Assembly (NCBI GenBank): GCA_023701005.1
Contig: JAMPXW010000002.1
Coordinates: 177,167 to 241,166 of the forward strand
DNA length: 64,000 nt
Direction of reading: 5' to 3'
Origin: Burkholderiales bacterium
Lineage (GTDB): Bacteria; Patescibacteriota; Minisyncoccia; Phycocordibacterales; UBA9973
In this document: in pieces, positions 1,918-53,300 of the stretch
Layout: every line of letters begins with the position of its first letter
How positions within the stretch are numbered: the stretch's first letter is position 1
Translations under genes and position numbers: made by a program
The notes under the pieces: model-generated
Told to the model about the DNA's origin: nothing
What the model saw: only the letters and a program-made list of their open reading frames with translations
The model's database searches: none

Positions 1918-3735
1918 ATGAAAATAAAAAAAATATATAAAATAATATTAATCATATCAATAATATTTATAAATTCATCAAGCATAGCAAATGCAGCTGA
2001 TATAAATTTAACAATTAGAAGTGGAAATACTATCTTCTTCTCTGGCCCAGTAACACTAAGAGAACCCGGCAATATAGAATTAAATTCTCATCCATTAAAT
2101 TCAAATAGTGTACTTTCCGTAATTAATGATGCCGACATCTCAAGTGAAGATTTCACTATATCAGATATACAATATTATGATTCGTATGGATCATTTTATT
2201 TGAAATGCATGACTAGTTCTGTCGGCAATGATTGTGACAATTGGCAATATACCGTCGATGACATTTATCCTGGGATAGGAATGGACAAAAAAATACTATC
2301 CGGAGGAGAAAATCTATATGTTTATTTTGGTCCCCAAAACAAGATATTACTAAGTTCTAATTCGATAAATACTAACGAAACAGTAACAGTAACAACTAAA
2401 GAATATAACTATCAAGATAATAGCTGGAAAAAAAGAACTGGAATCACTGTCGGATTAACACAAACAAACCCTGATGATCCGTGGTCTCCTTTGGAAATTA
2501 AAACTAGCCCAGTAAATGAAAATGGAGAAATTACTTTTTCTAACATAGAAACTGGCTCTTACAATGTAGGGGTAAAAGAAGATTTTTATTTTCCAACAGA
2601 AATATTAACAGTGACGACTCCACCAAACATAGGAGGTAGCACTGGAGGATCATCTTTTACCACTCCAGAAATAAATAAAAAAGAATTTAACATAGAAAAA
2701 GCTATTGAATTTTTACTTTCTAAACAAAAAGAAGATGGTTCTTTTGGAGAAGATTTATATACAGATTGGGTAGCTATCTCTTTAACACCATTTAAAGATA
2801 AAGAAAATGTATCTAAAACAATAGAAAAATTAAAACTTTATTTTAAAGAAAACAAAAATAATCAAGATCTCTTAACTGACAAAGAGAGAAAATCAATCGC
2901 CTTGTTGTCTTTAGGTTTAGACCCACACAACACAAATAATAAAAATTATATAAAAGAAATATTGGAAACTTTTGATGGTAAACAATTCGGAGAAAATGAC
3001 AAAGATAATGATGATATTTTCGCTTTACTAATATTACAAAAGACAGGATACAACGAGACAGAAGATGTAATAATTAAAACTATCGATTTCATATTATCAA
3101 GACAAAAAGAAAACGGTTCTTGGGATGAGTCTATCGATATGACAAGCGCAGCCATACAATCTTTAAGTAAATTTAATAAAAATGAAATAATAAAAAATTC
3201 TCTTACTAAAGCAAAAGAATATTTAAAAATAAAACAAAAAGAAGATGGGAGTTTTGGAAATGTTTCTTCAACTGCTTGGGCTATGGGAGGCATACTAGCC
3301 TTATCTGAAAAACCTATAGATTGGACTAAAAATAATAATACACCAATAGATTATTTGACTTCTATGCAAGATGAAAATGGAAACATAAAAGACCCGTCTA
3401 GCTTCGATAAGACTGATGAACATTTACAAAATAAAATTTGGCAAACAGCCTACACTCTTTCAGCTTTATCTCAAAAAACATGGCTAGAGACAATGGAAGA
3501 ATTTAAAAAACCAACATCTGATACAACTGAAGAAAATTTACCAACAAATTTAAAATCAAATATTAAAAAAACAGAAAACAAAAAATCATACAGTAAAAAA
3601 AATACTATCAAAAAAGAATTAATAGATATAAATACAAAGAATCAATCACCTTCAACCACTATTTTGCCTGCTTCTACTTCTACCTTGTCTACTTTTCTAA
3701 GATTTTTCAAAACCGTCTTCGATAAAATATTATAA
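1918..3735 (+). CDS. Secreted protein (signal peptide) with C-terminal prenyltransferase/squalene-cyclase-like alpha-alpha toroid repeats
   Basis: N-terminal MKIKKIYKIILIISIIFINSSSIANA signal. Repeated LSKQKEDGSFG / LSRQKENGSW / IKQKEDGSFG / MQDENGN modules resemble the terpenoid cyclase / protein prenyltransferase repeat (QxxxDGSW/F); the domain family is established, the functional role is inference. Confidence 0.6.
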   Translation: MKIKKIYKIILIISIIFINSSSIANAADINLTIRSGNTIFFSGPVTLREPGNIELNSHPLNSNSVLSVINDADISSEDFTISDIQYYDSYGSFYLKCMTSSVGNDCDNWQYTVDDIYPGIGMDKKILSGGENLYVYFGPQNKILLSSNSINTNETVTVTTKEYNYQDNSWKKRTGITVGLTQTNPDDPWSPLEIKTSPVNENGEITFSNIETGSYNVGVKEDFYFPTEILTVTTPPNIGGSTGGSSFTTPEINKKEFNIEKAIEFLLSKQKEDGSFGEDLYTDWVAISLTPFKDKENVSKTIEKLKLYFKENKNNQDLLTDKERKSIALLSLGLDPHNTNNKNYIKEILETFDGKQFGENDKDNDDIFALLILQKTGYNETEDVIIKTIDFILSRQKENGSWDESIDMTSAAIQSLSKFNKNEIIKNSLTKAKEYLKIKQKEDGSFGNVSSTAWAMGGILALSEKPIDWTKNNNTPIDYLTSMQDENGNIKDPSSFDKTDEHLQNKIWQTAYTLSALSQKTWLETMEEFKKPTSDTTEENLPTNLKSNIKKTENKKSYSKKNTIKKELIDINTKNQSPSTTILPASTSTLSTFLRFFKTVFDKIL

Positions 3736-4271
3736 TGTTTTATTTTATCTAATTCATCATCTATCCCCCATAGATCATATTCTGCTACTTCCCAACCTTT
3801 TTCAAAAATATTTAAATTAAGCGGGATAGAATAACTTCTCAAAGTTTTATTTCCATTATCTAAAAAATATTCATGAAAATAAGACATTACTAATTCCCTT
3901 ATATTTTTATATACAGGCTCTCTATATCTTAAAACAGCATGATTCGTCTTAGATAATGCTCCCCACAAACCATCTTTTTTAAAAGGTGTTATCATATGAT
4001 CAAAGTCTCCTTTTGTTGTCTTTAAATGCAAAATAAGGGGTTTGTAACCATGCAAAGAAAGAACATAAGCACCCAATATAGCTCCTTCTATACAATGAGC
4101 ATTCTTTTCTCTCAAAACTCTAATGGGTGACTTTATCACATTTTTCCCATCTTTTTCAAAATTAAATTTTAAACTATTCAAAAAATCTTGCACCTTGGCT
4201 GGTGTATTTAACCTTTTCATTAATGCTATTTCTTTTTGTGTAAAATTTAACATCTGTGGATAACTGGGCAA
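3642..4271 (-). CDS. Hypothetical protein, possible papain-like (transglutaminase/NAT-like) Cys-His enzyme
   Basis: 209-aa ORF; REKNAHCIEGAILGAYVL Cys-containing segment followed by His/Asp-containing segments; weak fold-level guess only. 3' end overlaps convergent gene 1918..3735 by 94 nt. Confidence 0.5.
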   Translation of the reverse strand: MPSYPQMLNFTQKEIALMKRLNTPAKVQDFLNSLKFNFEKDGKNVIKSPIRVLREKNAHCIEGAILGAYVLSLHGYKPLILHLKTTKGDFDHMITPFKKDGLWGALSKTNHAVLRYREPVYKNIRELVMSYFHEYFLDNGNKTLRSYSIPLNLNIFEKGWEVAEYDLWGIDDELDKIKHYNILSKTVLKNLRKVDKVEVEAGKIVVEGD

Positions 4272-4991: not shown

Positions 4992-4996
4992 TTGAC

Positions 4997-6370
4997 TTAT
5001 GATTTACATTTTATACAAGCATTTCTAGCTGGACCTTCGGGAACCATTTGACAATATTGCACACTTGGAACACTTATAAAATTATCACAACTAGGACCAC
5101 TTTCCACAGGAGCTCCAACAGCACCGACACCTTCTGGTAATCTATTTTCTTCTCTGCTTATATCTGGAGTGATACCTTTTGTTTGCTCTTGTATCTGCTC
5201 TCGTATTTTTTCTTTGTATTCATTTGGTATACCTTCTGGTATCATCTTTTGTATATCTTCTCTATTAGGAACTCCATTTTTCATAATTTCGCCATCTCTG
5301 TCTGGTATTTTACCAAAACAAGCTTCTATTTTGGATCCTATTTCTTTTGTTGGTTTAGTTGTTTTATTTAATATATTATTATATTTTTCTTCGCCAATTG
5401 ATGATTTCAAACAACCTTCTACCGTACTACGCATCCCCTCTGGCATCGAGCTAAGGGCCTTCATCATTTCATCTATTCCTGAAGTCATCAACTCTTTGTC
5501 TTTTTCTGAAACTAAACCTTTTTCTATAGCAAAGCTTGAACATAAATCAATATTATCTTCTTTGTTACAAAAATCTTCACATTCTTTTTTTGATTTACAC
5601 CCACCAGGACCAACCCCTCCAGATTTCTTTGCTATTTCAGCATCTTCTTTCGATATAAGTCCAGAAATTTCTGCGAAAGAAACACATTCTGAAAAATTGA
5701 CTTCTTTAGAACAAAAATCTTCACATTCTTTTTTATTCTGACATTTGCCTGGTGTTTTACCTTCTTTCAAAAAAGAAGAAACCTTTTTTGCTTCTTGTAA
5801 ATCTTCTTTTGAAAGAATCTCTGATTTTTCAGCAAAATTTAAACATTCGTCTATATGACTTGTAATAGAACAATAATTTTCACATTCCATTTTTGTCTTA
5901 CAACTACCTGGCATTTCTGCTCCATCTTCTAAAGCCTTCAATATCTTTTTAGCTTCTAAAAGATCTTTTTCTGGTATAATTTTTAATTCATCAGCAAAAA
6001 CTACACATTCTTTTATATTTTCAACTTTAAGAGAACAAAAATTTTTACATTCTTCTTCGCTCTTACAACCGCCAGGAGTCGTTCCTTCAGCTACTCTCTT
6101 TGCTACAGCTTTAGAAACTCTCAAATCTTCTCCTGTAAGGAGTTTTTTTTCTTCTGCATAATTTACACAAGCCACCATATTTACAGTCTTACTACAAAAA
6201 TTTGCACAATCTATTTTGTCTTTACATGAACCAAGTTCCTTTATTGGATAAATGATATTTGTATCACTTACCTTAGGCTTGTACTCTTCTACATTTTGAG
6301 CATTTACAACATTTATAAAAACAAAAGTTAAAACAAAAAATATTCCTAAAAATTTAATAAAATTTTTCAT
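4997..6370 (-). CDS. Secreted cysteine-rich tandem-repeat protein (5 x ~45-aa 4-Cys modules), unknown function
   Basis: Signal peptide MKNFIKFLGIFFVLTFVFINVVNA. Five tandem repeats of pattern G(S/G)CK...EC(E/K)NFCS......EC(V/L)xFAE..xLxxEDL.EAKK. Pro/Gly/Glu-rich C-terminal half ending with another Cys cluster (CDNF...CQMVPEGPARNACIKCKS). Confidence 0.7.
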   Translation of the reverse strand: MKNFIKFLGIFFVLTFVFINVVNAQNVEEYKPKVSDTNIIYPIKELGSCKDKIDCANFCSKTVNMVACVNYAEEKKLLTGEDLRVSKAVAKRVAEGTTPGGCKSEEECKNFCSLKVENIKECVVFADELKIIPEKDLLEAKKILKALEDGAEMPGSCKTKMECENYCSITSHIDECLNFAEKSEILSKEDLQEAKKVSSFLKEGKTPGKCQNKKECEDFCSKEVNFSECVSFAEISGLISKEDAEIAKKSGGVGPGGCKSKKECEDFCNKEDNIDLCSSFAIEKGLVSEKDKELMTSGIDEMMKALSSMPEGMRSTVEGCLKSSIGEEKYNNILNKTTKPTKEIGSKIEACFGKIPDRDGEIMKNGVPNREDIQKMIPEGIPNEYKEKIREQIQEQTKGITPDISREENRLPEGVGAVGAPVESGPSCDNFISVPSVQYCQMVPEGPARNACIKCKS

Positions 6371-6374
6371 AAAA

Positions 6375-6605
6375 TTATTCTACAAAAGGATTCTTATAGC
6401 CATTGTAAGGATTTACATCTGCCTTAAATGGATTAGTTTTTTCGACCTCACTTCCTATATTAAATTTTATATCTTCAATTTTTATATTTTGGTTTTCTTT
6501 TGTCTTACCAAAATCTTTCACAAAATCAAAATTAAAAAATATAATTAATAAAATTATTATTAAAATAATTAATACTATCCAAACAATATTTCTTTTATTA
6601 TTCAT
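6375..6605 (-). CDS. Small membrane protein (76 aa), hypothetical
   Basis: Single hydrophobic helix IVWIVLIILIIILLIIFF; 4 nt after upstream gene stop. Confidence 0.45.
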   Translation of the reverse strand: MNNKRNIVWIVLIILIIILLIIFFNFDFVKDFGKTKENQNIKIEDIKFNIGSEVEKTNPFKADVNPYNGYKNPFVE

Positions 6606-6623
6606 AACAACTATATTATATCA

Positions 6624-6848
6624 CTAGTCTTTATCAACCACTAAAAGCTTGGTCGGGCTTTTGTGTCCATTTATTATACGTATTTTGTTTTTTGGAATAA
6701 CATAGTGAAAAGAAAGCAATTCTACTATTTTATCATTTGCCATGTTTCTCTCGGCTTTTTCTTTAACAGATATCTCAAAATGATCTTCATTCATTTTTTT
6801 GAAGATTTCTTTTTTAGAATTAGGAAAAGCTTTTACTCTTATATACAT
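6624..6848 (-). CDS. DUF167 (YggU-like) family protein
   Basis: 74 aa; pattern AxPNSKKExxxx...ISVKEKAERNMANDKIVELLSFHYVIPKNKIRIINGHKSPTKL matches UPF0235/DUF167 architecture. Confidence 0.55.
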   Translation of the reverse strand: MYIRVKAFPNSKKEIFKKMNEDHFEISVKEKAERNMANDKIVELLSFHYVIPKNKIRIINGHKSPTKLLVVDKD

Positions 6849-7884: not shown

Positions 7885-8256
7885 TTAATTAGTTGGTAAT
7901 ACACAACCACTTATCTCTGATAATTTTTCCAAACCTTGTTCACCTACATATTTTTTACCTTCCCCGTCTATCCACGTAGGATAGCCTTCTATCCCTTTAG
8001 CAATACATAAATCTGGATTCTCAGTGCATTCTACATAAGGAACATATTTAAATGCACCTTCAAATTTGTCTTTCTCTGCTTTACAATGAGAACACCAAAC
8101 AGCACCATACATCGTCATATCTTTACTAGCCAAACATTGTGCAAAAGCATCATATTTTGTAGAGACAGTGCTACTACCTTTGTTCAACAAAATAGTGGCT
8201 ACTGTGCCCAATATCAAAAGACCCATTATTAAAAAGAAAATATTTTTTTGACTCAT
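7885..8256 (-). CDS. Membrane-anchored thioredoxin-like protein (WCSHC active site)
   Basis: N-terminal TM anchor then AVWCSHCKAEK CxxC motif; thioredoxin-fold length. Confidence 0.6.
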   Translation of the reverse strand: MSQKNIFFLIMGLLILGTVATILLNKGSSTVSTKYDAFAQCLASKDMTMYGAVWCSHCKAEKDKFEGAFKYVPYVECTENPDLCIAKGIEGYPTWIDGEGKKYVGEQGLEKLSEISGCVLPTN

Positions 8257-8262: not shown

Positions 8263-8769
8263 TTATTCTTTACAGCAATCTACAAGTTTACCCATGATAT
8301 CATCAAAAGTCATAGGTTTTTCAGCTTCTAGGCTGTTTTTTATATCTGGTATATTAATAATTTTCAATCTAAGTCCAAAGAAAAGATTGTAAACTTTATA
8401 TGCAAAAGTAAACATTTGTTTTGCATCTTCTGTTTTACCATCACCTTGCAACTTAGTTCCGACTTCCATAAGCCTCATCGTTGTTGCCAATAAATGTTTA
8501 GAAATACACCAACTCTCTGCCTCTGTCTTATCTATCATTCGAGCAAGTAAAACTTTTCTCATCTCTCGCACTTCACTCAACATATTATAATATTCGTCTT
8601 TGCCTGTTTTAGCACCAGAAAAAAAGAAGTGCTCTTCTAAGCTAATGAGATTCATGACAGCGATACTCAAATCTTCTTCTGTAGATAAATCTACCCCTCT
8701 ATCTTCTTTTAAGGTTGCTATCTTCTTTTGTAATTCTTCGAAACTTAATAATTTTAAATCTTGTGACAT
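8263..8769 (-). CDS. Hypothetical protein (168 aa) between thioredoxin-like and CcdA genes
   Basis: ORF only; no recognisable motif. Confidence 0.45.
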   Translation of the reverse strand: MSQDLKLLSFEELQKKIATLKEDRGVDLSTEEDLSIAVMNLISLEEHFFFSGAKTGKDEYYNMLSEVREMRKVLLARMIDKTEAESWCISKHLLATTMRLMEVGTKLQGDGKTEDAKQMFTFAYKVYNLFFGLRLKIINIPDIKNSLEAEKPMTFDDIMGKLVDCCKE

Positions 8770-8880: not shown

Positions 8881-9576
8881 TTATAATGAAAATATTAAAA
8901 CACCAAAAACAACAAGGATTAATAATAATATTACACGTGCTTTCTTCGTTTCTAATCTGCGCAATCTATCTATCTTTTCTGCCATCACTTTATTTGTCGT
9001 AAGCAACAATATGACAATGAGTGGCAAGACAAAAATAAAATTATAAATGATTAAATACCAAAAACCTTTCCAGAAATTCGCATAATCATGAAGCAAAGAC
9101 AACACAAAAAGATAAGGACCACCAGTACAAGGAAATTCAAACATAGCAACGAGAGCTCCTAACAATAAAAATGCTGGTATAGAACCCTTTGTCATAACTT
9201 TCGCTATAGTTGTGTGAGTACTCTCTGGCATTTTCAATTTGATGGGGAAATTTTCAAAAAATTCATTTATCAAACCGATAATACTGTAAATGAGCAATAT
9301 AGAAGCACCTATCTTCGCCATGATATTTGGTACATTAAAAAATGTTAAAGCTTTCAATGTGCCCAAGCCTATGAGTGTGTAAACTATAGCTATAGCCAAG
9401 ATATATACACCACCAGAAATCAAAACAAATCTTCTATTTTTACCTAAACTAAATAAAAAAGTAATAGTCAAAAATAACACTGAAATAGCACATGGATTGA
9501 TACTGTCAATCAAAGCAGAGAGCATTATTACGGGCAAAAAACCATGTGAACTTGTCGTTAAATATTCTGCAAACAT
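8881..9576 (-). CDS. ccdA: Cytochrome c-type biogenesis / disulfide-reductant transporter CcdA (DsbD beta-domain family)
   Basis: Multi-pass membrane protein with LIDSINPCAISVL motif (conserved Cys in TM1 of CcdA/DsbD family) and second Cys in FEFPCTGGPYL. Confidence 0.75.
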   Translation of the reverse strand: MFAEYLTTSSHGFLPVIMLSALIDSINPCAISVLFLTITFLFSLGKNRRFVLISGGVYILAIAIVYTLIGLGTLKALTFFNVPNIMAKIGASILLIYSIIGLINEFFENFPIKLKMPESTHTTIAKVMTKGSIPAFLLLGALVAMFEFPCTGGPYLFVLSLLHDYANFWKGFWYLIIYNFIFVLPLIVILLLTTNKVMAEKIDRLRRLETKKARVILLLILVVFGVLIFSL

Positions 9577-17634: not shown

Positions 17635-17706
17635 TGGGAGATCGTCTAATGGTAGGACACTTCCCTCTGGAGGAAGTTATCTTGGTTCGAGTCCAAGTCT
17701 CCCAGC
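17635..17706 (+). tRNA. tRNA-Gln (anticodon CUG)
   Basis: Hand-folded cloverleaf: acceptor TGGGAGA/TCTCCCA (U1:A72 as typical for bacterial tRNA-Gln); D-arm GTCT-AATGGTA-GGAC; anticodon arm CTTCC-CTCTGGA-GGAAG; T-arm CTTGG-TTCGAGT-CCAAG; discriminator G; CCA not encoded. Confidence 0.85.
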
Positions 17707-20737: not shown

Positions 20738-20977
20738 TTATTTACTTAACAATTCATCAAAAGCATCTGGCTGAAAACCTACAATGATATTTCCATCAAT
20801 ATCTATAACTGGCACACCCATTTGCCCACTTTTCTTTACCATTTCCTCTCCTGCAGCTCTATCTAGCCCAACATTTTTATCTTCAAAGGCTACACCTTTT
20901 TCTTTTAAATATTCTTTTGCATAAACACAATACGGACAAGTGGTAGTGGAATAAACTATAACTTTATGATCTTTCAT
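20738..20977 (-). CDS. Glutaredoxin-like protein (NrdH/Grx family, CPYC active site)
   Basis: 79 aa; VIVYSTTTCPYCVYAKEYL...GVPVIDIDG canonical glutaredoxin motifs. Confidence 0.85.
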   Translation of the reverse strand: MKDHKVIVYSTTTCPYCVYAKEYLKEKGVAFEDKNVGLDRAAGEEMVKKSGQMGVPVIDIDGNIIVGFQPDAFDELLSK

Positions 20978-21026
20978 ATATTTTTTTAGTAGAATAAACT
21001 ACTTTAATTAAAATTAATAATAATAT

Positions 21027-21299
21027 TTATTTATATTTACAAATAAACTTTTTCAAATCTTTTACAAAAGGCTTTCCAGGTAATTTATAACAAATTCTTT
21101 TACCTTCTCGTGTCGACAAAACGAGGCCTTCTTTCGACATAGCTTGTAAATGATGAGAAGCCAATGCCACACTCATTTTTAAACTTCCTGCTATATCAGA
21201 TACACAAACCTTTTTATGATTAAAGATAAGACAGAGAATTTTTAATCTATTCTCATCCCCTGCTGTACGCATTAATCTGGCTAATTCATTCAAACGCAT
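21027..21299 (-). CDS. ArsR/SmtB-family metalloregulator
   Basis: 90 aa; NRLKILCLIFNHKKVCVSDIAGSLKMSVALASHHLQAMSKEGLV winged-HTH of ArsR family. Confidence 0.8.
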   Translation of the reverse strand: MRLNELARLMRTAGDENRLKILCLIFNHKKVCVSDIAGSLKMSVALASHHLQAMSKEGLVLSTREGKRICYKLPGKPFVKDLKKFICKYK

Positions 21300-33538: not shown

Positions 33539-33539
33539 G

Positions 33540-33612
33540 AGCCACCCCCGAGGATCGAACTCGGGACCCCGTCTTTACGAAAGACGTGCTCTACCAACTG
33601 AGCTAGGGTGGC
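33540..33612 (-). tRNA. tRNA-Thr (anticodon CGU)
   Basis: Reverse-complement folds as GCCACCC-TA-GCTC-AGTTGGTA-GAGC-A-CGTCT-TTCGTAA-AGACG-GGGTC-CCGAG-TTCGATC-CTCGG-GGGTGGC-T. Confidence 0.85.
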
Positions 33613-33623
33613 ACCCTTTCTAG

Positions 33624-33696
33624 AGCCGTTGCGCGGGATTGAACCGCGGACCTCGATATTACCAATATCGTGCTCTACCAACTGAGCTACAACGGC
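33624..33696 (-). tRNA. tRNA-Thr (anticodon GGU)
   Basis: Reverse-complement folds as GCCGTTG-TA-GCTC-AGTTGGTA-GAGC-A-CGATA-TTGGTAA-TATCG-AGGTC-CGCGG-TTCAATC-CCGCG-CAACGGC-T. Confidence 0.85.
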
Positions 33697-38374: not shown

Positions 38375-41300
38375 ATGTTAAAAACAAAATTACAAATAAA
38401 TAAAATAAATACAACAAAGATTATCTTTGCAATATTTATTTTAATTTTTGTATTCTCCCCTTTTGCAAAAGGAGAAGCTGCAATAAATAAACAAATCAAT
38501 TATCAAGGTAAACTCACTGGAAGTAGTGGAGTCGCTGTATCAAACGGAACATATAACATGGAATTCAAACTGTACACTGTAAGTTCTGGTGGCACAGCTA
38601 TCTGGACAGAGACAAGAACAGATGCAAACAAAGTCCAAGTGACGAGCGGACTCTTTAGTGTGCTATTAGGAGAGGTTTCTACTTTGGACAATGTTGATTT
38701 CAATCAGACACTTTATTTAGGAGTAAACATCGGAGGTACAGCTGTCTCTCCTGCTTGGGATGGTGAAATGACCCCACGTAAAAAACTCGGAACAGTGCCT
38801 AGTGCTGTTGTCGCAGAGAAAGCTATAAACATACTTGGTGGTTCTGCAGGATATGTTCCCTTCCAAACAGCTGCAAACACAACTTCATTTTCATCCAATT
38901 TCTTTTGGGATAATTCTACAGCAAAATTAGGTATCGGGACAACGGCACCAGTACAAAAATTAACTATATCGGGTGGCAATATAAAACTTGATGATAGCTA
39001 TTATCTTGATTGGTCAAATGGAAGTGAAAGAATTACAGGTACAGGTTTAAGTGGAAACTATTCATTAAAATTTGAAACCTACAATGGCAGTGCATTGACA
39101 GAAAAAATGAGAATCCTAGGAAACGGTAATATAGGTATCGGGACGACAGCGCCTAATGCACTTTTGCATCTTTCTGGATCTGCAGGATCAAATGGACCAA
39201 ATTCAGGTTTAATATTAAATGCATCTTATGGTTTGGGTACTTCAGTAAACAACATTGATTTTAGAATTAATGGAAATGCAATCAGAGCTGCATCTCTTGG
39301 TGCTGCAGCTAATGTTGGAGGAGCTGATTTAACATTTTACACTTCATCAAACTTTGCGACAACAGATGCCACAGAAAAAATGAGAATCGACAAAAACGGC
39401 AACGTAGGTATCGGGACAACGGCACCAGGATTTAAATTAGATGTTAACGGAATATCTGCGGCAAATCAGTTTTATTCAGGAGGAGTTAATATAACTAGTA
39501 GCGGTATCTGGGGTGTAGGTAGTAGTGCTGAAGCTTTAATTGGTTTTGGAAGTGCTCAAGCAGGAGGAGCAAGACCCTGGAATTTTTCTTCTGGCGGAAC
39601 TGGTAAAACAGGTGGTTATTTTACCTGGAATATAGATACAGTAGAAAAAATGCGTCTTGATAATTCCGGCAACGTCGGCATCGGGACGACAGCGCCGGGG
39701 GCAAAGCTGCATGTTGAAGGAACTAATGAAATTTTATCTTTAACAGGAACAACTCCTTATCTTCGTTTCTTTGCAAATCCATCACAAAGTTATATTGGTT
39801 CTGGTTCTGGCTTGGTTTCTGGTATGGCAGTTACAGATTTAGCAATACGCTCTGCATCAAATATTGGTTTTTCAATTGGGACAAGTGAAAAGGTTAGGAT
39901 AGATAGTAGCGGTAACGTCGGCATCGGGACGACGGCACCAGTAGAAAAATTAAATGTAAATGGAAACATCAATATTACTGGCGGAGAATTAAGAATGTTT
40001 AACAATTCTACAGTTTTAGCTGCAACTTCATCTAACTTATTATCAATCAACAACGGTGGATTTAGTAATGTAGCTATAACAAACGGTAATATCGGCATAG
40101 GAACAACGACACCAGCTTACAAATTACACGTAAATGGCGTCGCTTATTCTTCTTCTTATTTCTATGCTCCTGAAGGTATATTTACATCAGTACAAGCAAA
40201 TAAAGTATTTCCAACTTCTTCTGTAGATTTACGATTACAAACTAGAGATAACACAGATAATATTTTATTTGAAATAGATACAAATGCTCCTTCAGAAAAA
40301 ATGAGAATCACCTCAGCAGGCAACGTCGGTATCGGGACGACGGCACCAACATACAAATTACAAGTTGCGACAGCAGTAAATTCTGCTGGAATTGTACATT
40401 CAAATTCATCCAATGGAACTAGAGTCTATACATTTATTGATTCTTCTGATAACGGATTATTACTTCTAAAAAATAGTAGCAATATCGATAATATAAATTT
40501 GAATACTGGTGGTAATAGTTATTTAAACGGTGGCAACGTCGGTATTGGGACAACAGCTCCAGGACAAAAGCTTGATGTAGTAGGAGGAAGTATAAGAACA
40601 GATAATCAATTAATTTCTACAATAGCAACAGGTACTTCCCCATTATCCATCTTATCTACAACAAAAGTCACAAACTTAAATGCCGACATATTAGATGGAT
40701 ATCATTATAATTCATTTATTCCAGTAAGTGGTTATCACTTTACAAACGGATATTTGATAGCGACAGACATCTCTGCAGCAAGCAACACAATGTTTAGTGT
40801 AGAAATAACCGGAAATAGCTATGGGGATGGAAAACCGATTCATATAACACTTCAAGGATACAACTATACTGCAGGAGACGCTATCATAAATTATTCTGGA
40901 GTCGCAGAAGATTGGACCAGAACCGTAAAAGCATTCAACTATAATGGATACTTATATTTCTGGCTCGATCAAAGTTCTTCATTCCAATCCATCACTGCTT
41001 ATGTAAAAAATACAATGGAAACAAATAATGTAAATCATGTCACAGCTATCACCAACGAAGTAGAGCCAACAACAGGCACAACCAGAAAAGTTTCTATAGT
41101 TCCAAAACAAATTTGGAATTCTGGAAATGATGGAGTTGCTTCTACATTGGATGCTGATTTGTTAGATGGACAACATGGTTCATATTATCAAACTGCTTTG
41201 ACTAATCCTGTCACTGGCACAGGTACAACAAATTATCTTTCTAAATTTACTGGTACTTCTACTTTAGGAAATTCTTTAATTTTTGATAATGGAACTAATG

Positions 41301-44300
41301 TGGGTATTGGGACGACGGCACCAACTCAAAAACTTTCTATAAATGGTTCAGTAAACATGATTTCTAACGGTGCAATAACTTTTGAAAATACTAATAATAA
41401 TGGAAATTGGTATATAAGAAATTCTGGTACAAATTTAGCATCATTAGATTTTGGAATTGGAGCTGTTGGTGCGAGTGACAAAATAAGATTTGATAGTAAC
41501 GGCAACGTCGGTATCGGGACGACAGCGCCAGGAGCAACCTTGGATGTTGCTGGAACAATTAGAACAACTTCAACAATCACAACTGGTTCATATTTTTATA
41601 ATAATTCAGCTTCTGATGCTAATAAATATCTTACAAACACGCCAGGGCCAAGCTATATGGGTTTTAGAGGACATGGAATAAACAATAATACAAATTCAGT
41701 ATTATCAATTGGTTATACAACTTTACCATCTACTCTAATTTCTCCTGTCTTGTCGGTAGTTGATAATGGTAACGTCGGTATCGGGACGACGGCACCAACT
41801 CAAATGTTACAAATTGGAGGAAACACTACATCTTCCATAGGAATGAGGATAGCTCCTGCTGGCGCAAATTGGGACATAGTCACTGATGGCAGTCAGGGCT
41901 TAAACATTAAAAATGGAAATGGGAATTATTTAACTTTCATTAATTCATCACAAATATCTTCTTTTACAGGAAACGTCGGTATCGGGACAACAGCGCCAAC
42001 CGCAAAATTAGATATAAATAATGGGGTAAATCGTACAAACAATCCAACTAGTTTAATAGTTGCTGGCACTGGAGTACTTGGAACAACAGCTGGTAGTTAC
42101 CTATATCCGTCAGAAACAATATCAAATGCCGGAAATACTTTAAGGCTACAAACAACAGCGTACCGTAGAGATGCTGGAAGTACATGGTTCGGGGCTGGTT
42201 TCAGAATACAATATGCTGTAGACAATAGTTTTACAGATGGAACTGGTTCTTTCTTAGAAATGGGTGGACGAACTGACACAACTCCTTATATATCATTAGG
42301 TACTTCTGGAGCTGATAGAATTTATATTAATTCTTCTGGCAACGTCGGTATTGGGACAACAAGTCCAAGTGGAAAATTGGAAATAAATGGTGGAGCTTAT
42401 GATTCTTCACTTGTTATTACAACAAATGTTTCTAGTGGTGCTGATATTAAATTAAATCAAACAGGAACAAATGGAAGGGAGTGGCATATAACTTCAACTG
42501 GAAGCTCAAATGCAATGAGTGCTGGAGGTTTACAATTTTATGATGACACTGCTGGTGCTTTTAGAATGGGTATTCAAGGATCTACTGGTAATGTCGGGAT
42601 AAATACGGGGAATCCACAAGCAAAATTACATATTTATAATGCTACAGCTGGTGGATTAAATGAAACCATCCGTTCTCAGGGATATTGGTCTGCTCCAGGT
42701 TCTGGTTCTTTAATCAGATTCACTAATTATCATGCTTCCGGAACCACCCCAAACACAGGCGAATACAACTTAGCTGGAATAGGAGGGTTAGATGATAATG
42801 GAGGTTGGGGTGGTTCTTTATACTTCCAAACAGCACCGACAGGTACAGCAGGTGGAGCAGCGTTACAAACCAGAATGACAATCAACCCTGCCGGTAACGT
42901 CGGTATCGGGACGACGAGTCCAGGAACTAAATTAAACGTAATTGGTAATATAGCATCTGAAAAATCAGCAGGTGGATATGTATCCTCTTTATTTTGGCAG
43001 GGCAATGATCCAGCAATCGGTTATTATTCGGAAAATGGTTTGCTTTTTGGTACTGAAACTACAATGGTAGGTGGGGCTTTTAGTGAAAAGATGAGGATAA
43101 CAAACGCAGGCAACGTCGGCATCGGGACGACGGCACCTGCTCAAGCATTAGATGTGGCTGGTGTCATCAATGCTTCAACAGGATTTAGAATAGGAAATGC
43201 TGCTACTTCTGGTAATTATCTCCGAGGAAATGGAACAAATTTTGTTTCAAGTGCCATTCAAGCTGGAGACGTCCCTACCCTAAACCAAAATACCGCTGGT
43301 TATGCTGCACTCTTGGTGAGTGAAGACAATAGAACAATTTCTCCAAGCGAGCTAGCTATCAACCGATTAAAATTTGGTTTTACTAGTTGGGCAAACAACG
43401 ACAGCTCTCCTTATGCAGATTTCTTGCATTTGAGAAGTTACGCTGATTCCTCAGGAGGAGCTGACAACTTAATAATGTTCAACAAGAGTGTAATAGCAAT
43501 GAGAATCTATCAGCAAACATTCGGTTCTGCTACTGCATATTCTTCTTATAGAGATGTCATAACAACAAACACAAGCGCAAGTGGTACTGCAAATTATTTA
43601 CCTAAATTTTCTAGCGGAACAACAATTGCAAATTCATTAATTTTTGATAACGGAACTAACGTGGGTATCGGACTCACTAATCCTGAAGGTAAAATGCATA
43701 TTATTGGCATGAATAGTGCCTTCCCTGCTACTACGGGAACCGTTCAAACTGGATTAGAGGCTCGATTTCAACCTTATGACTCTAACGGAGTATTAGACAT
43801 AGGTGTTAACTCTGGAAGTGGAGCTTGGTTGCAATCAACTAATCGAACTAGTTTAAGTAGCAATTACCCATTGTTATTAAATCCAAATGGAGGCAACGTC
43901 GGTATCGGGACGACAGCGCCAGCCACAAATCTTGATGTAGTCGGAGATATAAGAGCAAGTGATACTTCAGGAAATTATATTTATCTTGACACGACAGGTG
44001 CAAATCCAGGCATCGTTTCAAATTCTAGCAGGTCAATCAATATACAACCTGGGTCAGGCCTAACCACTTTTTATACCTCAGGTACTGCCGGTACTCTTCA
44101 AATATATGATGGTAGTTCTTCATATCCGATTATATTGAGAGCAGGCGGTAATAGTATATTCAATGGTGGTAGCGTCGGTATCGGAACTGCAAGCCCTGCT
44201 TCAAAATTACATGTCTACGACAACAACGCAACCACAGATCACACTATCGGACTTACGATAGAACAAGCAGGTACAGGTGATGCAAAATTACAATGGCTCA

Positions 44301-47300
44301 CGACAGGCGTGACACGTTTTGGAATGGGTATAGACAATAGTGATGGAGATAAATTAAAAATATCTGCAGCCACAGACTTAAGTACAAACAATGTTTTGAC
44401 AATCGATTCTTCTTCTAATGTCGGTATCGGAACTGCAAGCCCTGGAGTACTTTTGCATTTATCAAAAAATGGAACAGCAAGCACACAAACAGTAATGGCT
44501 GTTTTAGAATCTGTCACCTCTCAAAGGCCAGTATTACAATTTAGTGAAGGTGGCTATGGTTTGACTAGTGGGATGAGCATTGAATACGATGGCAGGAGTG
44601 GAGGAAGAGCAAATCTATTAAATATAAATGATATTAATGGTGTAGCAATCGGAACATTCATGAGTGGCGGGAATTTTGGAATTCAAACTACATCCCCTAC
44701 TGCAAATTTGACAGTCGCTCAAAGCACAGCAGGAGTCGGAACAGTTTCAAATACAGCAGGAGGAACGACAGTCACAGGTAATGGCACAGAATTTACAAAC
44801 ACATTTAAAGTCGGAGATACCATAACAGTCGGAGGACAAACTGTCGCTATTTCAGCTATCGCGAGTGACACTAGTATGACAACTGCAGCCATAACAAATG
44901 CAAACACAAACGCTGCATACACATTAGTAGGTGGAACAAGAATGGTTGTAAAAGGTAATGGAAATGTTGGCATTGGTTTAACGAATCCTTCTGCAAGACT
45001 TCATATTTCTGAAGCAGGACCAGCATATGATTGGGACTCGTTGAGAGTAGATTTTCAAGCAAATGGAAATTTGAATAGTTTAAATTCTTCAGCTGGTAGA
45101 TTCATAAATACTCTCGCACCAAGCTCTCAATCTTATGCTATCGGTTCATTAGGAGAAGCAATAAAAACAGGGCACTATGGCTACACGGCCACAGGAGCAG
45201 AAGGTCGTGGAATATATAGAAGTAATTCTTTAGGAACAAGCTTAGCTTCATTAGATTTGTACGGTGTTAGTGGTAAAGTGTCTGTCGAAGGCACAGGAGC
45301 AAACACAATCAATTCAGGAAAATCTTTGTATGCTTATGCCAACGTAGACGCTGGAAATATTTTAAGTACTTACTGGGGAGTTTATGTAAAATCTCCATCA
45401 GGAACAGGAACGATAACAAACAAATACGCATTAGTCACAGAAGCAGGTGCGGGAAACGTGGGAATTGGTTTGACTAACCCAGGCTTCCCTCTCGCAGTGC
45501 AAGGAACAATACAAGGAAGAGGCATAGCTTATTTCACTCAAGCTTCACCAACAAATTCTCTAGCGATAGATGCAACTTCAACAACTTTACACAAAATTTA
45601 TACAAACAATGCTGGTATTGATTTATCTTTGGGAACAAATAGTTCAACTTCACAATTATATTTACAATCTGCAGGCAACGTCGGTATCGGGACAACGAGT
45701 CCAGGAGCAAAATTAGATATCCTCGGATCAAATAGTGCAATGGCCTTAAATCTCAGAAGTTCTAGTGGCCAAATTCAATTTTTCCCATACAGTGATAATA
45801 AAAATTACATAGAAAGCGTAGACGGTACTGGTACAGCTTCACAACTTCTCTACTTCACTGGATACAGTGGAACAGCAGGAACATTTTCTTTTAATGGCAA
45901 CGTCGGTATCGGGATGACTTCACCAACTTACAAATTAGATTTGCAAGGATCAGCTTGGAACAATATTGCACGTATATATTCTACAGGTAGCTCTAGTGGC
46001 TTAGACTTTTATGATTCTGGAGTAAGACGTGGTGTTGTTTATAGTGATTCTAGTGGTTTTGGATTATTAAATAGTGCTACTAGTTGGGCTATTAAAATAC
46101 CTTACGGTACAGGTAATGTTGTCGTAGAAAATGGAAATATGGGTGTCGGAACATCAAGCCCAAGTGCAAAATTAGATGTCGTTGGAAATATAGAATTAGG
46201 AGCAGCTGTCGGCACCACTAGATATATCTTAACAGACGAAACAAACACCGGTACTGGAAAAGTCGCAATACAAGCAGGAGCTGGTTCAGCAGCCTTTGGT
46301 GGTGCTATAAATCTTTATGCTCAAGCACATGCTACAAATCCTGGATGGGTACAAATTGGTATTGGTTCTGGGGCTGGAAGTGGAGGGACAGAAGGAAGAT
46401 TTACTGTAAACAATCAAGGACTAGGTGGAGGAACTGATGTCTTCACAGTATTAAGAACAGGTAACGTCGGCATCGGGACGACGGGGCCGAGTCAGAAATT
46501 GGAAGTTAATGGTAATGCATTAGTAACAAAACTTGGAATCGGTCAACTTGATGCCGCGAATTATGTGTTGGATGTAGGTGGTGCGGCGAGAATCTCTTCA
46601 AGCGGAAATGTGAATTTTAATCAGGCAAGTGGCGCTGCGACTTTTCATGGACAAGTAAATTTCCCTGGGTCAGGGGTTTGGCAAACAAGCGGCAACGTCG
46701 GCATCGGGACGACGAGCCCAAATCAAAGATTAGAAATTGGTAGTTCCGGAAATTACCAAATGCGCATAGGTAATGGTTCTACCGCTGCTTATTCATATGA
46801 TTTTGGAAGAAATACAACAGATGGTTTATTTTATTTATACGGAAATCAAACTGGAGCAAACGGATATGTTTTTAGTGGAATAAATGGTGAAAGAATGAGA
46901 ATAAATGAAAGTGGTAACGTCGGCATCGGGACGACAGCACCTGGAACTAAATTAGATATTGCTGGAACCATGCACACAACAGGCCTATATACTGCGAGCG
47001 CGGGTATCCAACTTGAAGGTCAAAATTTAGGCTGGGATCAAAGTGGAGTTAGATCTTGGACAATGGGAACAGCTGCTTCTAGTGGCAATATGACATTAAA
47101 ATCTGGAGATGAAGCTGGAATTTTTCGTGTTTTAACAACAACAACTTCATTAAGTGGTAATTTAATTGTTTCTGGTACTACAAATAGTTCTATCGCTGGA
47201 AATCTAGGTATTGGAACGATAAATCCTGGAGCTGATTTAGTTATAGAAAACAGTGGTACAAACAATACCCAACTATGGTTACAAAATACTGGTACAGGTA

Positions 47301-50300
47301 TTACAGAAATCGGTTTTGATTCGGCAAATGGAGATTTCGCTGGTAGCGATTACATGTCTTTGGGGCAAAATGATTCATTGGATGGATATATTAAAATGTT
47401 TGCTAACGCTGGAAGATTTCATATAGATACAGGAGGAGTTGAAAGATTTACTATCTTACAAAATGGAAATCTAGGTATCGGAACAACAGCACCAGGGTCA
47501 AGATTGGTAGTTAGTTCAGCTGGGATTGTTGCAGGGACACCTGAATTTGTTGTCGGTGATTATGGAACAATAAAATTAAAAACATACCAGACTGGAAGTA
47601 CTTATGCAGCGATGTATACAGGCAACAATGAAGACTTAAGAATCACTGCTGGAACAGATAATAGTCAATTAGTACTAAAAGCAAATAATGGAAACATTGG
47701 AATTGGTACTGCCTCCCCTACCGCCTTCAAGCTCCAAGTCGCAGGAAGTGTCGGACCAAATGTAGACAATTCTTATGACTTAGGTTCTTCTGGAGCAAGA
47801 TGGAGAAACTTATACATCTCTGGGACGATAGCTCAAGGAGGATATTTAGATAATAGTTTAGACAATTTAGTTTACAACGGAGATTTTGAAACAAATTCTA
47901 CAAATGGTTGGACGGGGGGAGGCACAGCAATAGTCACAGGAGGACATTCTGGAAATTATGCAATGCAAGTGACAGGCAACCAACAAATAGAAAGTGTTGA
48001 CTACATCCCCGTCAATCCTGTAAGAGATATTTTACAATTAGAAATCTACGCGAAAAAGTCTGTAGCTGGAACTACACCAGGAATACTCTATTTAGGATAT
48101 ATTGCATATGATGCAAACAAAGCAGCCATTTACACAGCTCCTTGTGGATCATATTGTTATTTTGCTGCTTCTGCTTATACATTACCAGCAGATGGAAATT
48201 GGCATAAATTCAATGCAACGACAAACGGTGAAGGTACGGTTTATCCCAACTTCCCTGTCGGGACGAAATTCGTTCGTGTATTAGGATTAATAAACTACAG
48301 TGGATCTGCAGATGCAGTGACTTTAATAGACCATATCACATTAAAGAGATTAAATTATGGACCTACATACATAGGAAACAACTTCGGAACGACAAACCAA
48401 GCAGACCAAACTCAATTGAGTAAACTCTACACAACTTCTGTAAATAATTTAATAATAGATACTCCTGCTAGTAACGGAAATATAGGATTCGGAATAACAA
48501 ATCCAAATCCTTTTGCTTGGTCATCCAAAGCATTCACTCTTCAATCTACTGGTACAAATACTTATTCATCTCTTGAAGCTTTTGGAACAGGTACAGGGTC
48601 TGGAGCATTATTGTTAGGTAACAGCACCATTCACAGAGCAACTATATCTACAGCTGACGGTTCTCACCTCACATTCTCAACAAACAATAACAACGCCGCT
48701 TCATACATGACAGAAAAAATGAGAATCACTGCAACGGGCAACGTCGGAATCGGAACGACTTCTCCAGATCAATTATTGCAAGTAAATGGCGCCAGCGGCA
48801 CAGCGATAAGTATCAAAACTCCTTGGGCTGCGAGTGCTTATGGTCAATTGAGATTTGATACAGGAACAGGTAGCTCTTCTATCCGTTCTTCTGTGCCTGG
48901 TGATTCTACAAATGGTTTACAATTCTTTACTTACTCTGGTGGAGAGACTGTAAAAATGTCTATCACTGGTGCAGGCAATGTTGGTATCGGACTCACAAAT
49001 CCAGCATACAAATTAGATGTTGTCGGAGGAATTCATTGGAATCCTGGAGTGACAGGTTCTCCTGAAGGCTTTATGTCTGGATCAAGCGCTGAACAATCTA
49101 TTCAACTAGGATCATTAACAAATAGTCCCCTTTCCCTAACAACAAATGCCCTAACGAGATTATTCATTGATGGAAATGGAAATGTCGGTATCGGGACGAC
49201 AGTACCAACTTACAAAGTAGACATAGCTTCCACAGGTAATGCCTTAAAGATAGGTCAATCAGGAACAGCTACAAACACCATCTATCAAACATTCACAAAC
49301 GGTGGAGGAAGTGTTTATCTTGGAATAGATAATTCTGGAGGTAATGGATTATTCACAGGAGGCGCAGGCTATGCTGCAGCTTTCGGACATGGAGGAAATT
49401 ATCCAATAGAATTCGCGACAAATAGTACTGTCAGAATGCTCATCGACGGTTCCGGAAATGTGGGAGTAGGTACAGCGACACCACAATATGGAAAATTAGA
49501 AATAGCAACCACTGCATCTAATGTTGGAGGTTTAACCTTGTATCGTGGAACAGGAACGACGGCTAGACACTGGATCAATTCATCTGATGTTTACTTAATT
49601 CAAAGAGCTATTACTGACACTTATGGCATTGCAATAGACAACGTTGGAAATGTCGGCATCGGAACGACAAGTCCAGTCAGTATCTTAAACATTAATGCAA
49701 CTTCTCCAGTACTTACTCTTACGGGTTCTACAAGTGGACAAGAAACTATTGCTTCACAAATTCACTTTGCCGTCGGTAATTATTCTGGAGCAAGAATCAA
49801 AGCGATCCAAACGGGAGCAAGCTATGGTTATCAAGTTGGGTTAGGATTTTTTACACAAGACGCTCCATACGATGCTAACTCTTTTGAAAGAATGAGAATA
49901 TCAAGCACCGGAAACGTCGGCATCGGGACGACGGCGCCAGGTAAAACTCTTGATATAGCAGTTTCTCCCAATGCTAGTAATGGTATTTTGGTAAGAGATA
50001 ATAATGATGCAACAAAATCTATATTAATTACGAGTTCACAAGGATCCACTGCCTTCCCGTACATTGGTACAAATGGTAATAGGCGTCTTGATTTTGGTAC
50101 AAATACTGCACGACAAATGACAATAGATACAACCGGCAACGTCGGTATCGGGACAACGGCACCGAACGCGCCTTTGTCATTTGGAACAGTTACAGGGGAT
50201 AAGATTTATCTCTATGATGGAAGTGGCAATTATGGATTTGGTGTGGACTCGGGAGGGGCTTCCCAACTAAACATCTTCACAGGAAATTCTGCGGATATGT

Positions 50301-53300
50301 GGTTTAGAAGCGGTGGTGGGGATGGGACCGTCAGGATGGCAATTGTAGGAACAACTGGGAATGTCGGTATCGGGACGACGGCGCCAGGAAATCTATTAAA
50401 CATATATAGAAATTCTTCTTCTACACTACCTATAACACGAATAGAAGATGCTGGAACAGGAGATGCATCAATGGCGTTTGCCCTCACAGGAGTAGCTGGG
50501 TTTTCTATCGGTATAGACAATAGCGACGATAATAAGTTTAAAATTTCAGGAAGTGGAACAGATGTGGGGAGTAATCCGTATTTAACTATTTTAGGGACAG
50601 GACCAACAGTAGGTAACGTCGGCATCGGGACGACGAGTCCGGGAACTAAATTACAGATTGTGGATAGTGATGGCTCAAATGGAACGATTGGAGTTGGAAT
50701 AAATTCAAGGGGGACATTTGGGTGGAATAATGCTGGTCAAGGTACTCTAGAGATAAAAAATAATCTTACAAGTGGAAGTCCTAACGCTATTACTTTTTGG
50801 GCTGCTCCAACCAGTGGAACTGTTGCTGAGATGATGCGTATTCAAGGAAATGGCAACGTCGGTATCGGAACGACAGCACCGGGGGCAAAATTAGAAGTTG
50901 TAGGAAATACATACATATCTGGAATAAGTTCAGGAACTGGAAATAGGCTTTCTTTTGATACTACGGGAGGGGCGGCTTCTAACTGGATCGGCACAACGAA
51001 TGATTATTGGACATCAATAGTCAATGGAAGAGGTTCAGGATCAAGAATAGATTTAGCTACTAATGATATAAGGTTTACCTTTGGTTCAGATGTGGGAAAT
51101 ATGCTTTTAAAAGCAAATGGGAATCTCGGAATTCAGACAGTTTCTCCTGTTGCAAATTTCCAAGTATCACAAAGCAGCACAGGCGTAGGCACAGTCACCA
51201 CAAATGGAACAACAACATTAACAGGTTCAGGAACACAATTTACAAATACATTTAAAGTTGGAGACACTATCACAGTATCTGGAGAAACAGTGAGAACTAT
51301 TGCCACCATTGTGAGTGATACTAGTTTGACTACGACTGTCGCCTTCTCTACTACTGCTTCTTCCCTTTCATACACCCTCACTGGTGGAGACAGGTTTGTT
51401 GTTAAGGGTAATGGAAATGTTGGGATTGGAACGACGGCACCAAATAAAACATTACACGTAATAGGTGATGTTCGTGGTGGAGCTTATTATAATAATAATT
51501 CTGGAGATGGTTGGTTAATTAATCAAGATTCAGGAACAAATAGAGGATTGTATTATTACAACACAACAGGTACGTGGGATTTGTTTGACGGAGGAACTTC
51601 AAAAATTAGTATGGGTATTAACGGAAATATTCAAATGGACGGAATACTCACAGTAAGCGGTACAGGGAATACCACAATCGCCGGCAACGTCGGTATTGGG
51701 ACGACGGCGCCAGTCACTCGTCTAGATGTAAGAGCTTTAAATGCCCTAGATGGAATTACTTTATCAGCTAATTCTGGAGGTTCTTCTGTTTTTAGAATGG
51801 TAAATCCGACTGTATCTAATAATTTACAAATTGGTACTTTGTCTAGTAATGACGTAGACATCATAGCTAATGGTAGTTCCAAGATTACTATTCTAAACGC
51901 AAACGGCAACGTCGGGATAGGAACCACATCCCCTGCACAAAAATTAACTATCAGTGGTGGAAATATCGGAATACTTGGACAACAAGATTTAATGCTTTAC
52001 GATTCTGATAGTTCACATTATAGTGGATTCCAAGCACATGCGACAACTACAAGTAATTCAATTTACACAATGCCAGCAGCCTTCCCTGGCTCTACTTCCT
52101 TCATGAAAACAGATTCAGCTGGAAATCTTTCTTGGGATACAAGCACTTATATAACAGGCAACCAATCTATCTCATTATCTGGTGATGCTTCAGGTTCAGG
52201 AACGACAGCAATAACAGTGACAAATAATTTATTAACCAAAGAAGACAATAGAACAATCTCTCCAAGCGAACTCACAACAGGGAAAATGCGTTTCGGATTT
52301 ACAAGTTGGGCAAACAATGACAGCTCCCCTTATGCAGATTTCTTGCATTTGAGAAGTTATACTGATGCATCAGGAGGAACAGATAATTTAGTAATGTTCA
52401 ACAAGAGTGTAATAGCAATGAGAATTTATCAACAGACTTACGGCTCCGCTACAGCATATTCTTCTTACAGAGATGTATTAACGACAGACACAGGTACAGG
52501 AGGCACAGCAAATTATATTCCTAAATTTACTGGTGGAACAACATTGGCAAATTCTTTAATGTTTGATAATGGAACAAATGTCGGTGTTGGGACAACAGCA
52601 CCTTCATATAAATTAGATGTCAGTGGACAAATTAGAGCAAATGCTGGTGCTGGTGTAGCAGGAATATTTACAAGTACAGCCGATTATCAATTAGCTTTAT
52701 CAAGTTCTGACAGTTGGACCGGAATTGGCTTCGATGATTCTGGAGCAATAAATGATTCTATTTGGTATCAAGGTACTACTGGAACATTCGCAATCGGTGG
52801 AGGTGGAAGTAGCGGAGTCACTAGTAAGAAATTACACATAGATGGTGCAACGACAATCGGTGCAAACTATGATGCCACAGCAATACCAACCAACGGATTA
52901 AGAGTCGAAGGTCAAACTTGGCTAGATAGTAACGTCGGTATCGGGACGACAAATCCTTTTCAAAAATTTGAAATAGATTTAGACCCTACAAATACAACTC
53001 AACCTACTGGAATTAACGGAACTGGAACAGATCCTCACACAGGAATGTTTATTCTAGGTACCGGAAATGCAAACAATGAAAAACTCGGCCTACAAATCGG
53101 TTTGTGGAGTAACGGTACAAACAAATATAGTATTGGAGGATTGTTTGGGGTAATGACTTCTGCTTCTGGAAACACCATCGGTGATTTAACTTTTGATCTA
53201 AGATCAAATGTAAATGACTCTTACCTAACAGAAAGAATGAGAATAACAAATGCCGGTAATTTAGGAATTCAAACTGCCTCTCCTGTCGCAAATTTCCAAG

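Follow-up and report, generated by a model that had tools for sequence, protein, structure and literature searches.

A conserved gene pair of Parcubacteria-type bacteria encoding a secreted repeat protein of four-cysteine, predicted three-helix modules and a small membrane-protein partner

Defensins are built on a cysteine-stabilised alpha-beta (CSαβ) fold, in which a helix is packed on a beta-sheet and a CxxxC motif is paired with a CxC motif. The Helicobacter Hcp proteins consist of disulfide-bridged Sel1-like repeats, which are units of about 36 residues with two helices and one disulfide, while protein A domains, GA modules and FIVAR domains form tandem three-helix bundles in Gram-positive surface proteins. 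Here, a gene is described whose product resembles each of these in part, and which lies in a stretch of 64,000 nucleotides (hereafter the window) of contig JAMPXW010000002.1 in assembly GCA_023701005.1. The gene (4997..6370, minus strand; hypothetical protein NDI62_02460 at NCBI) encodes a secreted four-cysteine helical repeat protein of 457 residues and is directly preceded by the gene of a small membrane protein, its partner. By analogy, the repeat protein would represent an already known type of protein, an extracellular protein of helical repeats that are held by cysteine staples, while its module, as judged from sequence comparison, is a new domain family, new to domain libraries and to the PDB; no description of the family was found in the full-text literature. 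Both products are tentatively combined into one picture, a disulfide-stapled extracellular helical stalk that is held at the membrane by the Asn-Pro-Phe (NPF) tail of the partner, to which a probability of about 0.45 is assigned.

All parts of the repeat protein are encoded on the minus strand. It starts with a putative Sec-type signal peptide (residues 1-24; 6299..6370), read from the sequence as MKNFIKFLGIFFVLTFVFINVVNA followed by QN, with K2 and K6 in the n-region, a hydrophobic core and a cleavage-type site between VNA and Q; conservation of A24 in the family alignment is 90% or higher. Five tandem modules follow. Module 1 (residues 43-95; 6086..6244) carries C49-x5-C55-x3-C59-x8-C68 with predicted helices at residues 52-59, 62-74 and 80-95, module 2 (residues 96-150; 5921..6085) C102-x5-C108-x3-C112-x9-C122, and module 3 (residues 151-203; 5762..5920), which is the most conserved one (SHIDECLxFAE), C157-x5-C163-x3-C167-x8-C176. 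In module 4 (residues 204-251; 5618..5761) the pattern reads C210-x5-C216-x3-C220-x8-C229, and in module 5 (residues 252-308; 5447..5617), whose third helix is extended, C258-x5-C264-x3-C268-x8-C277. The array is succeeded by a second kind of unit, the type 2 repeat (residues 309-356; 5303..5446), comprising two helices and the invariant C320 and C351 with 30 residues between them. Next comes a low-complexity linker rich in Pro, Gly, Glu and Ile (residues 357-425; 5096..5302), which is variable in length within the family and poorly conserved in the alignment, and the chain ends in a C-terminal four-cysteine mini-domain (residues 426-457; 5000..5095) with C428-x11-C440-x11-C452-x2-C455. In total, the protein contains 26 cysteines, namely 20 in the modules together with C320, C351, C428, C440, C452 and C455.

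A first-pass annotation, made by a model from the DNA letters, had already placed at this position an open reading frame (ORF) for a protein in which a signal peptide precedes five tandem four-cysteine modules. This was borne out, with first cysteines at C49, C102, C157, C210 and C258 and the example string quoted there located at residues 155-196. Its claim of a strict cysteine spacing also holds, although the first interval, given as C-x6-C, had to be corrected, the actual pattern being C-x5-C-x3-C-x8-C (in module 2 the last interval is x9), and the modules recur every 48-55 residues instead of every 45 or so. The Pro/Gly/Glu-rich segment and the terminal cysteine cluster were recognised correctly as well, but they do not directly follow module 5, since the helical unit with C320 and C351 intervenes. 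The mature protein displays the module pattern five times, whereas it never occurred more than once in any of 20,000 composition-preserving shuffles, so that a chance origin is excluded. Pairwise identity among the five modules amounts to 31-50% and no tandem repeat of module length is present in the repeat gene at DNA level; therefore, the repeat is old and diverged, and a recent tandem duplication or an assembly artefact was rejected in view of the missing DNA repeat. An antisense ORF of 190 residues (5169..5741, plus strand) is located within the gene and was classified as a shadow ORF: such antisense ORFs recur at homologous loci because the sense gene is conserved, and they are shadow ORFs rather than genes.

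Structural models were obtained with AlphaFold2 for the full-length protein from a 65-sequence alignment and for module 3 alone from 86 diverse modules. The full-length model contains helices only and reaches a mean predicted local distance difference test score (pLDDT) of 83.9, with values above 90 over residues 40-350, and a predicted template modelling score (pTM) of 0.61. Module 3 alone gave the same three helices at a pLDDT of 88.7. As predicted, the fold of the module is all-alpha: C1 is placed in a G-x-T-P-G-x-C linker ahead of helix 1, C2 and C3 are both located on the short helix 1, and C4 resides on helix 2, which is followed by a long third helix. The helices of the type 2 unit (residues 311-325 and 342-353) are likewise modelled with pLDDT values above 90 and the C-terminal mini-domain with about 94, while residues 1-31 and, within the linker, residues 360-366 and 401-424 remain below 50. 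A Cys-knot-like fold, as suggested in the first-pass annotation, is contradicted by these models, which show three helices per module and no strands.

Searches with the window protein retrieved more than 244 relatives, none of which bears a functional name; the named ones originate from metagenome genomes of the Parcubacteria/Paceibacterota type. A single-module profile was scored against 1.84 billion proteins (representatives of 50%-identity clusters) and matched 1,872 proteins at E ≤0.001, among them 1,043 at ≤1e-30, with up to 13 modules each and no assigned function in any; those with a named source likewise derive from Parcubacteria-type genomes. When each species was represented by a single genome, relatives were detected in 348 genomes, of which the best 80 belong to Nomura-, Wolfe-, Lloyd-, Lipton-, Jorgensen-, Harrison-, Sung-, Kaiser-, Yanofsky-, Azam-, Niyogibacteria and similar groups, some of these 80 being automatically labelled bins. 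Across 120 homologues, which possess 4-10 modules per protein, the spacing is (5,3,8) or (5,3,9) in 669 of 674 modules, and when 193 family proteins were scanned with a profile, 1104 of the 1136 module hits had kept all four cysteines. Other conserved features are a His or Asn four residues ahead of C4 and the G-x-T-P-G-x-C linker by which the modules are joined. The type 2 unit (C-x29-31-C) occurs in up to five copies in relatives, and 23 half-modules with C1-x5-C2 only were found, recurrently at the C-terminus of many members. When the modules of the window protein were compared with those of 77 five-module homologues, identity was 0.49-0.60 between modules of equal position and 0.26-0.48 between those of different position. 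The five-module array is therefore older than the radiation of the subfamily, and each position is separately constrained. The notion of a conserved extracytoplasmic four-cysteine module without a known domain has thus stood up, as neither a match to a well-known domain nor poor conservation of the cysteine spacing emerged.

The spacing C-x5-C-x3-C-x8/9-C resembles that of the first four cysteines in defensins and scorpion toxins, and a precomputed label of PF25052 (AtDEF-like) is attached to many homologues. If this label were taken literally, the protein would be a defensin-like polyprotein, i.e. the precursor of five CSαβ antimicrobial peptides. The whole protein indeed scores 29.8 bits against PF25052, which is above the gathering cut-off of 25, and 27.9 bits are retained without the signal peptide; a faint Toxin_2 match (E 0.095) points in the same direction. 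However, the 27.9 bits are summed over five partial matches confined to profile positions 41-73 of 79, and the best single module of the window protein gives 17.3 bits (E 0.006). Among the 86 diverse modules, 14 match PF25052, none of them significantly (best E 0.013), and 0 of 54 long family members match at E ≤0.001. Moreover, the CxC partner motif of defensins is absent from the window protein, the models are devoid of beta strands, and the modules are position-specific and connected by the G-x-T-P-G-x-C linker instead of processing sites. What is shared with defensins and CSαβ toxins is a secreted product and the spacing of the first four cysteines, whereas here the predicted fold is all-alpha, each unit has only four cysteines and modules of about 50 residues are arranged in tandem in a 457-residue bacterial protein. 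Membership in the defensin family was rejected on these grounds (alpha-beta fold and CxC motif absent, single modules not significant), which leaves the polyprotein explanation barely credible; the PF25052 hit reflects the common spacing of four cysteines, and a misleading automatic plant-defensin-like label is thereby removed.

In its overall design, the protein is comparable to further families composed of small helical units. Like the Helicobacter Hcp proteins, the protein appears as a secreted bacterial series of tandem alpha-helical units that are stapled by cysteines into an elongated solenoid, but its units comprise three helices, four cysteines and about 50 residues, and no Pfam match to Sel1 or TPR was obtained for the window protein or the 86 modules. 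With protein A domains, GA modules and FIVAR it would share three-helix modules of about 50-58 residues lined up head to tail as an extracellular stalk or binding array; membership in these families was supported neither by profile nor by structure. Short helices held by disulfides, with CxxxC on one helix, are also typical of Euplotes pheromones (PF06360), alpha-hairpinins and CHCH twin-CX9C proteins, which, in contrast, are eukaryotic proteins of one domain that differ in the number and spacing of their cysteines. The faint PF06360 matches in 6 of the 86 modules (best E 0.028) are not significant. In the PDB, the whole protein gave a single marginal sequence match (E 0.009), of residues 286-355 to helices in the N-terminal part of Fe/Mn superoxide dismutase; it was dismissed as fortuitous, since metal ligands play no part in it and the module profile itself has no PDB match.

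The partner gene (6375..6605, minus strand) is located directly upstream of the repeat gene and encodes a single-pass membrane protein of 76 residues. Its stop codon lies 4 nucleotides before the ATG of the repeat gene, and by this short gap both proteins are probably co-translated. The partner has no Pfam match. In the window protein, a hydrophobic anchor at the N-terminus is joined by a variable linker to the C-terminal tail EKTNPFKADVNPYNGYKNPFVE, in which NP[F/Y] occurs three times. From its sequence it is read as a type-II membrane protein, the tail of which should face outward. Upstream of the partner gene, a sigma-70-like promoter match (TTGATA-16-TATAGT; 6610..6637, minus strand) agrees with the consensus at 10 of 12 positions, which is weak evidence, the count of sigma-70-like sites in the region being equal to the shuffle expectation.

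A homologous small gene directly upstream on the same strand was encountered in 86 of 86 family loci. When the neighbours of 83 non-redundant loci were clustered, the partner turned out to be the sole conserved neighbour, any other cluster being present in at most 12 of the 83. Two clusters that recur on the opposite strand consist of shadow ORFs within the repeat gene. Partner homologues are about 70-130 residues long, with an anchor of about 18-20 residues and 2-5 NP[F/Y/L/M] motifs in the C-terminal tail, which almost always ends in (Y/K)xNPF, such as YKNPF, plus 0-4 residues. A profile built from 25 partner proteins retrieved 591 small proteins of 70-140 residues, all hypothetical. The pairing was also checked in reverse with four small-protein homologues picked regardless of their context, one of them from a Daviesbacteria-labelled bin: all four precede a multi-module four-cysteine gene (6-8 modules) at a gap of 5-63 nucleotides. 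In a Niyogibacteria metagenome-assembled genome (MAG; locus L060, 3698..8382, plus strand), the cassette is present as a tandem duplicate, in the order small NPF protein, 409-residue module protein, small NPF protein and 945-residue module protein.

The first-pass annotation, which had overlooked the partner, had pointed to genes for redox proteins close to the repeat gene, and these are present as described: a membrane-anchored thioredoxin (Trx)-like protein with a WCSHC motif (7885..8256, minus strand; PF00085, 27.8 bits) and CcdA (DsbD_TM; 8881..9576; 28 bits at a cut-off of 27.1). The closest relatives of the Trx-like protein are PDI domains and, at E 3e-16, the Trx domain fused to VKOR in Synechococcus (3kp8/3kp9), so that by sequence it is of the oxidative-folding type. 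CcdA, for its part, belongs to reducing pathways, and the oxidative-type protein stands two genes away from it. A single functional locus, in which the repeat protein serves as dedicated substrate or component of the adjacent Trx-like/CcdA cluster, might be suspected given that the genes from 3642 to 14397 are closely spaced on the same strand, in an order that is kept in the nearest syntenic relative, locus L006. In the other 84 of 86 loci, however, no Trx-like or CcdA homologue lies closer than about 6 kb to the family gene, neither protein was seen in four loci inspected gene by gene, and the neighbourhoods are otherwise unrelated apart from the partner. The link to the cluster proposed in the first-pass annotation thus failed the synteny test: because the Trx/CcdA neighbourhood is confined to the window and L006, a redox connection at the level of the locus is not supported and has to be considered very improbable. 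The glutaredoxin-like protein further on (20738..20977) contains a CPYC motif, but lacks a signal peptide and is read as cytoplasmic. This 79-residue ORF and an adjacent 90-residue ORF that looks ArsR-like by eye (region 20738..21299, minus strand) appear cytoplasmic and unrelated to the repeat gene.

Independently of such a link, the chemistry of the module cysteines can be considered in two ways. Two disulfides per module are assumed in the preferred reading because of the extracytoplasmic location, the two-cysteine units and half-modules, the fusions of some members to Kazal domains and the oxidative-type Trx-like protein; the cysteine count is even in 162 of the 193 family proteins. From its sequence, the genome appears able to oxidise secreted cysteines, and for bacteria of the candidate phyla radiation an enrichment of MdbA-like oxidoreductases encoded next to VKOR has been reported (10.1101/335083). 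As to the connectivity, no full module with exactly two cysteines lost was present among the 1136 hits, leaving C1-C2/C3-C4 and C1-C3/C2-C4 both possible. The same lack of modules missing exactly one pair, along with the invariance of all four cysteines, would suit an alternative in which each module coordinates one metal ion or an iron-sulfur centre. The protein would then store or buffer metal, or act in redox reactions, outside the cytoplasm, with its cysteines held in the reduced state by, for example, the CcdA and Trx-like proteins encoded nearby. Both of these are indeed encoded within 3 kb in the window genome, the predicted placement of C2 and C3 at i and i+4 of one helix with C4 on the next is compatible with a Cys4 site, and the conserved His/Asn four residues before C4 as well as a faint Fer4_4 similarity of modules 4 and 5 (E 0.05-0.27) might be read along these lines. 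Yet, the His alternates with Asn, a poor ligand for soft metals, the Fer4_4 similarity is far below the cut-off of 24 bits, and no metal-binding family profile in Pfam gave a significant match with the window protein or the 86 modules. In addition, the type 2 units and C-x5-C half-modules within the same proteins fit disulfide pairs better, Kazal domains, to which some members are fused, depend on disulfides, the Trx/CcdA neighbourhood exists in 2 of 86 loci only, and the Trx-like protein resembles oxidative domains of VKOR/PDI type. Overall, metal coordination is judged unlikely, though to a far lesser degree than the one-locus explanation.

In contrast to the conserved array, the ends of the family proteins are mosaic. 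The C-terminal element is lineage-variable, and the four-cysteine mini-domain is kept in the closest subfamily of the window protein, while other members end in a lone C-x5-C half-module (PPCSSPEECxxMFG) or in a Pro-rich stretch followed by a short amphipathic helix. Some longer members bear Kazal inhibitor domains or a lectin-like domain of the Laminin_G_3 family, and in some an extra domain of about 110 residues is inserted between signal peptide and first module; these long N-termini were considered as partner fusions and dismissed, since the extra domain is unrelated. A conserved array with variable ends is a pattern typical of extracellular stalk or scaffold proteins.

These elements can be assembled into the disulfide-stapled, membrane-held stalk introduced above. 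The all-helical repeat protein, with an array of three-helix four-cysteine modules of about 50 residues as its core, would be exported via Sec, after which two disulfides in each module would staple each small bundle. The stapled array could thus act as a stiff extracellular stalk or scaffold that continues into the two-cysteine helical unit, the flexible linker and the lineage-variable end, a role suggested by the pTM of 0.61 for the whole chain and by the mosaic architecture. The extracellular NP[F/Y/L] tail of the partner is proposed to dock onto the helical modules, because the pairing is invariant, the genes are duplicated as a unit and the motifs are situated at the extreme C-terminus. 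Through docking, a protein that would otherwise be released would become tethered to the membrane, and a two-subunit envelope or surface structure shared by Parcubacteria-type (Paceibacteria) bacteria would result. Recognition of NPF by EH domains and of EEVD by TPR domains offers an analogy, as here too a helical array stands beside a partner ending in repeated NPF-type motifs; in contrast to those systems, no homology to EH or TPR domains exists here and the docking is putative.

In favour of docking, the number of modules correlates weakly with the number of NP motifs (Spearman 0.36-0.44, p < 0.001), but the loci are phylogenetically non-independent and the correlation, which is given little weight, may be purely phylogenetic. 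Several observations weigh against this stalk model. None of 267 proteins represents a natural fusion of the partner with the repeat protein. Members possessing a C-terminal amphipathic helix of their own still have the partner gene, and anchoring may not be the only, or the true, role of the partner. With regard to the staples, the predicted secondary structure, in which C1 is in a loop, C2 and C3 on helix 1 and C4 on helix 2, could equally allow all four cysteines to meet at one metal ion, and many family hosts live in anoxic water or are anaerobes, where extracytoplasmic thiols can stay reduced.

The same amphipathic-helix members lend some weight to an explanation in which the pair is linked without any tethering. 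Here, the NPF-tail protein would be a secretion or folding helper, a regulator, a ligand or a cargo, and the repeat protein a released adhesin or binder of host surfaces. Strict gene pairing says only that both proteins act together, and the variable lectin-like and Kazal C-termini as well as the N-terminal extra domains are typical of binding proteins. On the other hand, the position-specific conservation of the modules throughout the class is more readily explained by a conserved internal partner than by host ligands, which evolve fast, and motifs at the very C-terminal end of a protein anchored in the membrane display the geometry expected for a docking peptide. This alternative is therefore held to be improbable, about on a par with metal coordination.

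A more far-reaching version of the stalk model is conceivable, albeit rather doubtful: a two-subunit surface apparatus of Paceibacteria, in which the NPF peptide docks multivalently into disulfide-stapled modules and the stalk presents variable heads (Cys knot, lectin-like or Kazal). If true, it would constitute a bacterial counterpart of eukaryotic NPF-motif recognition with a part in envelope organisation or in host attachment by episymbionts. Parcubacteria-type bacteria are among the most abundant uncultured bacteria and are believed to spend their lives on the surface of other cells, while their own surface biology consists almost entirely of hypothetical proteins. Three elements are newly defined here, the four-cysteine three-helix extracellular module, a second, two-cysteine repeat and a strictly conserved two-gene cassette. 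The cassette extends to about 1,900 sequence clusters and to at least 348 genomes at species level, provides a testable handle on the envelope of these bacteria and may serve as a lineage marker. In general terms, hypothetical extracytoplasmic families enriched in Parcubacteria have been reported before (10.1101/335083).

The organism from which the window derives also needs comment. The identical protein in NCBI is a hypothetical one labelled "Burkholderiales bacterium", whereas G+C content (29-33% over most of the window), gene content and the nearest relatives are those of the Parcubacteria group; the label is therefore probably wrong, presumably owing to a binning error. L006, the nearest syntenic relative, belongs to a Candidatus Nomurabacteria MAG. 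Among the genes compared between both loci, that of a conserved hypothetical protein of 168 residues shows the highest conservation, with 90% identity to its L006 counterpart.

The 168-residue protein is one of two conserved hypotheticals (3642..4271 and 8263..8769, both minus strand) that have no significant Pfam family. With Rfam, tRNA genes for Gln-CTG, Thr-CGT and Thr-GGT were located (17635..17706, plus strand, and 33539..33696, minus strand), and no other family scored above threshold in the window. A 605-residue secreted protein (1918..3735, plus strand), partly conserved in L006, resembles the alpha-alpha toroids of prenyltransferases and squalene cyclases, with Pfam matches to SQHop_cyclase_C (1e-10) and TED_complement (1.4e-07). 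Finally, a giant ORF of 7,453 residues (38375..60736, plus strand) coincides with a region of about 0.40 G+C in the otherwise about 0.30 G+C window. Its only Pfam domains, DUF4082, the Peptidase_S74 intramolecular-chaperone domain and a bacterial surface Ig-like domain, are all found near the C-terminus, and the ORF probably encodes a giant surface fibre protein.

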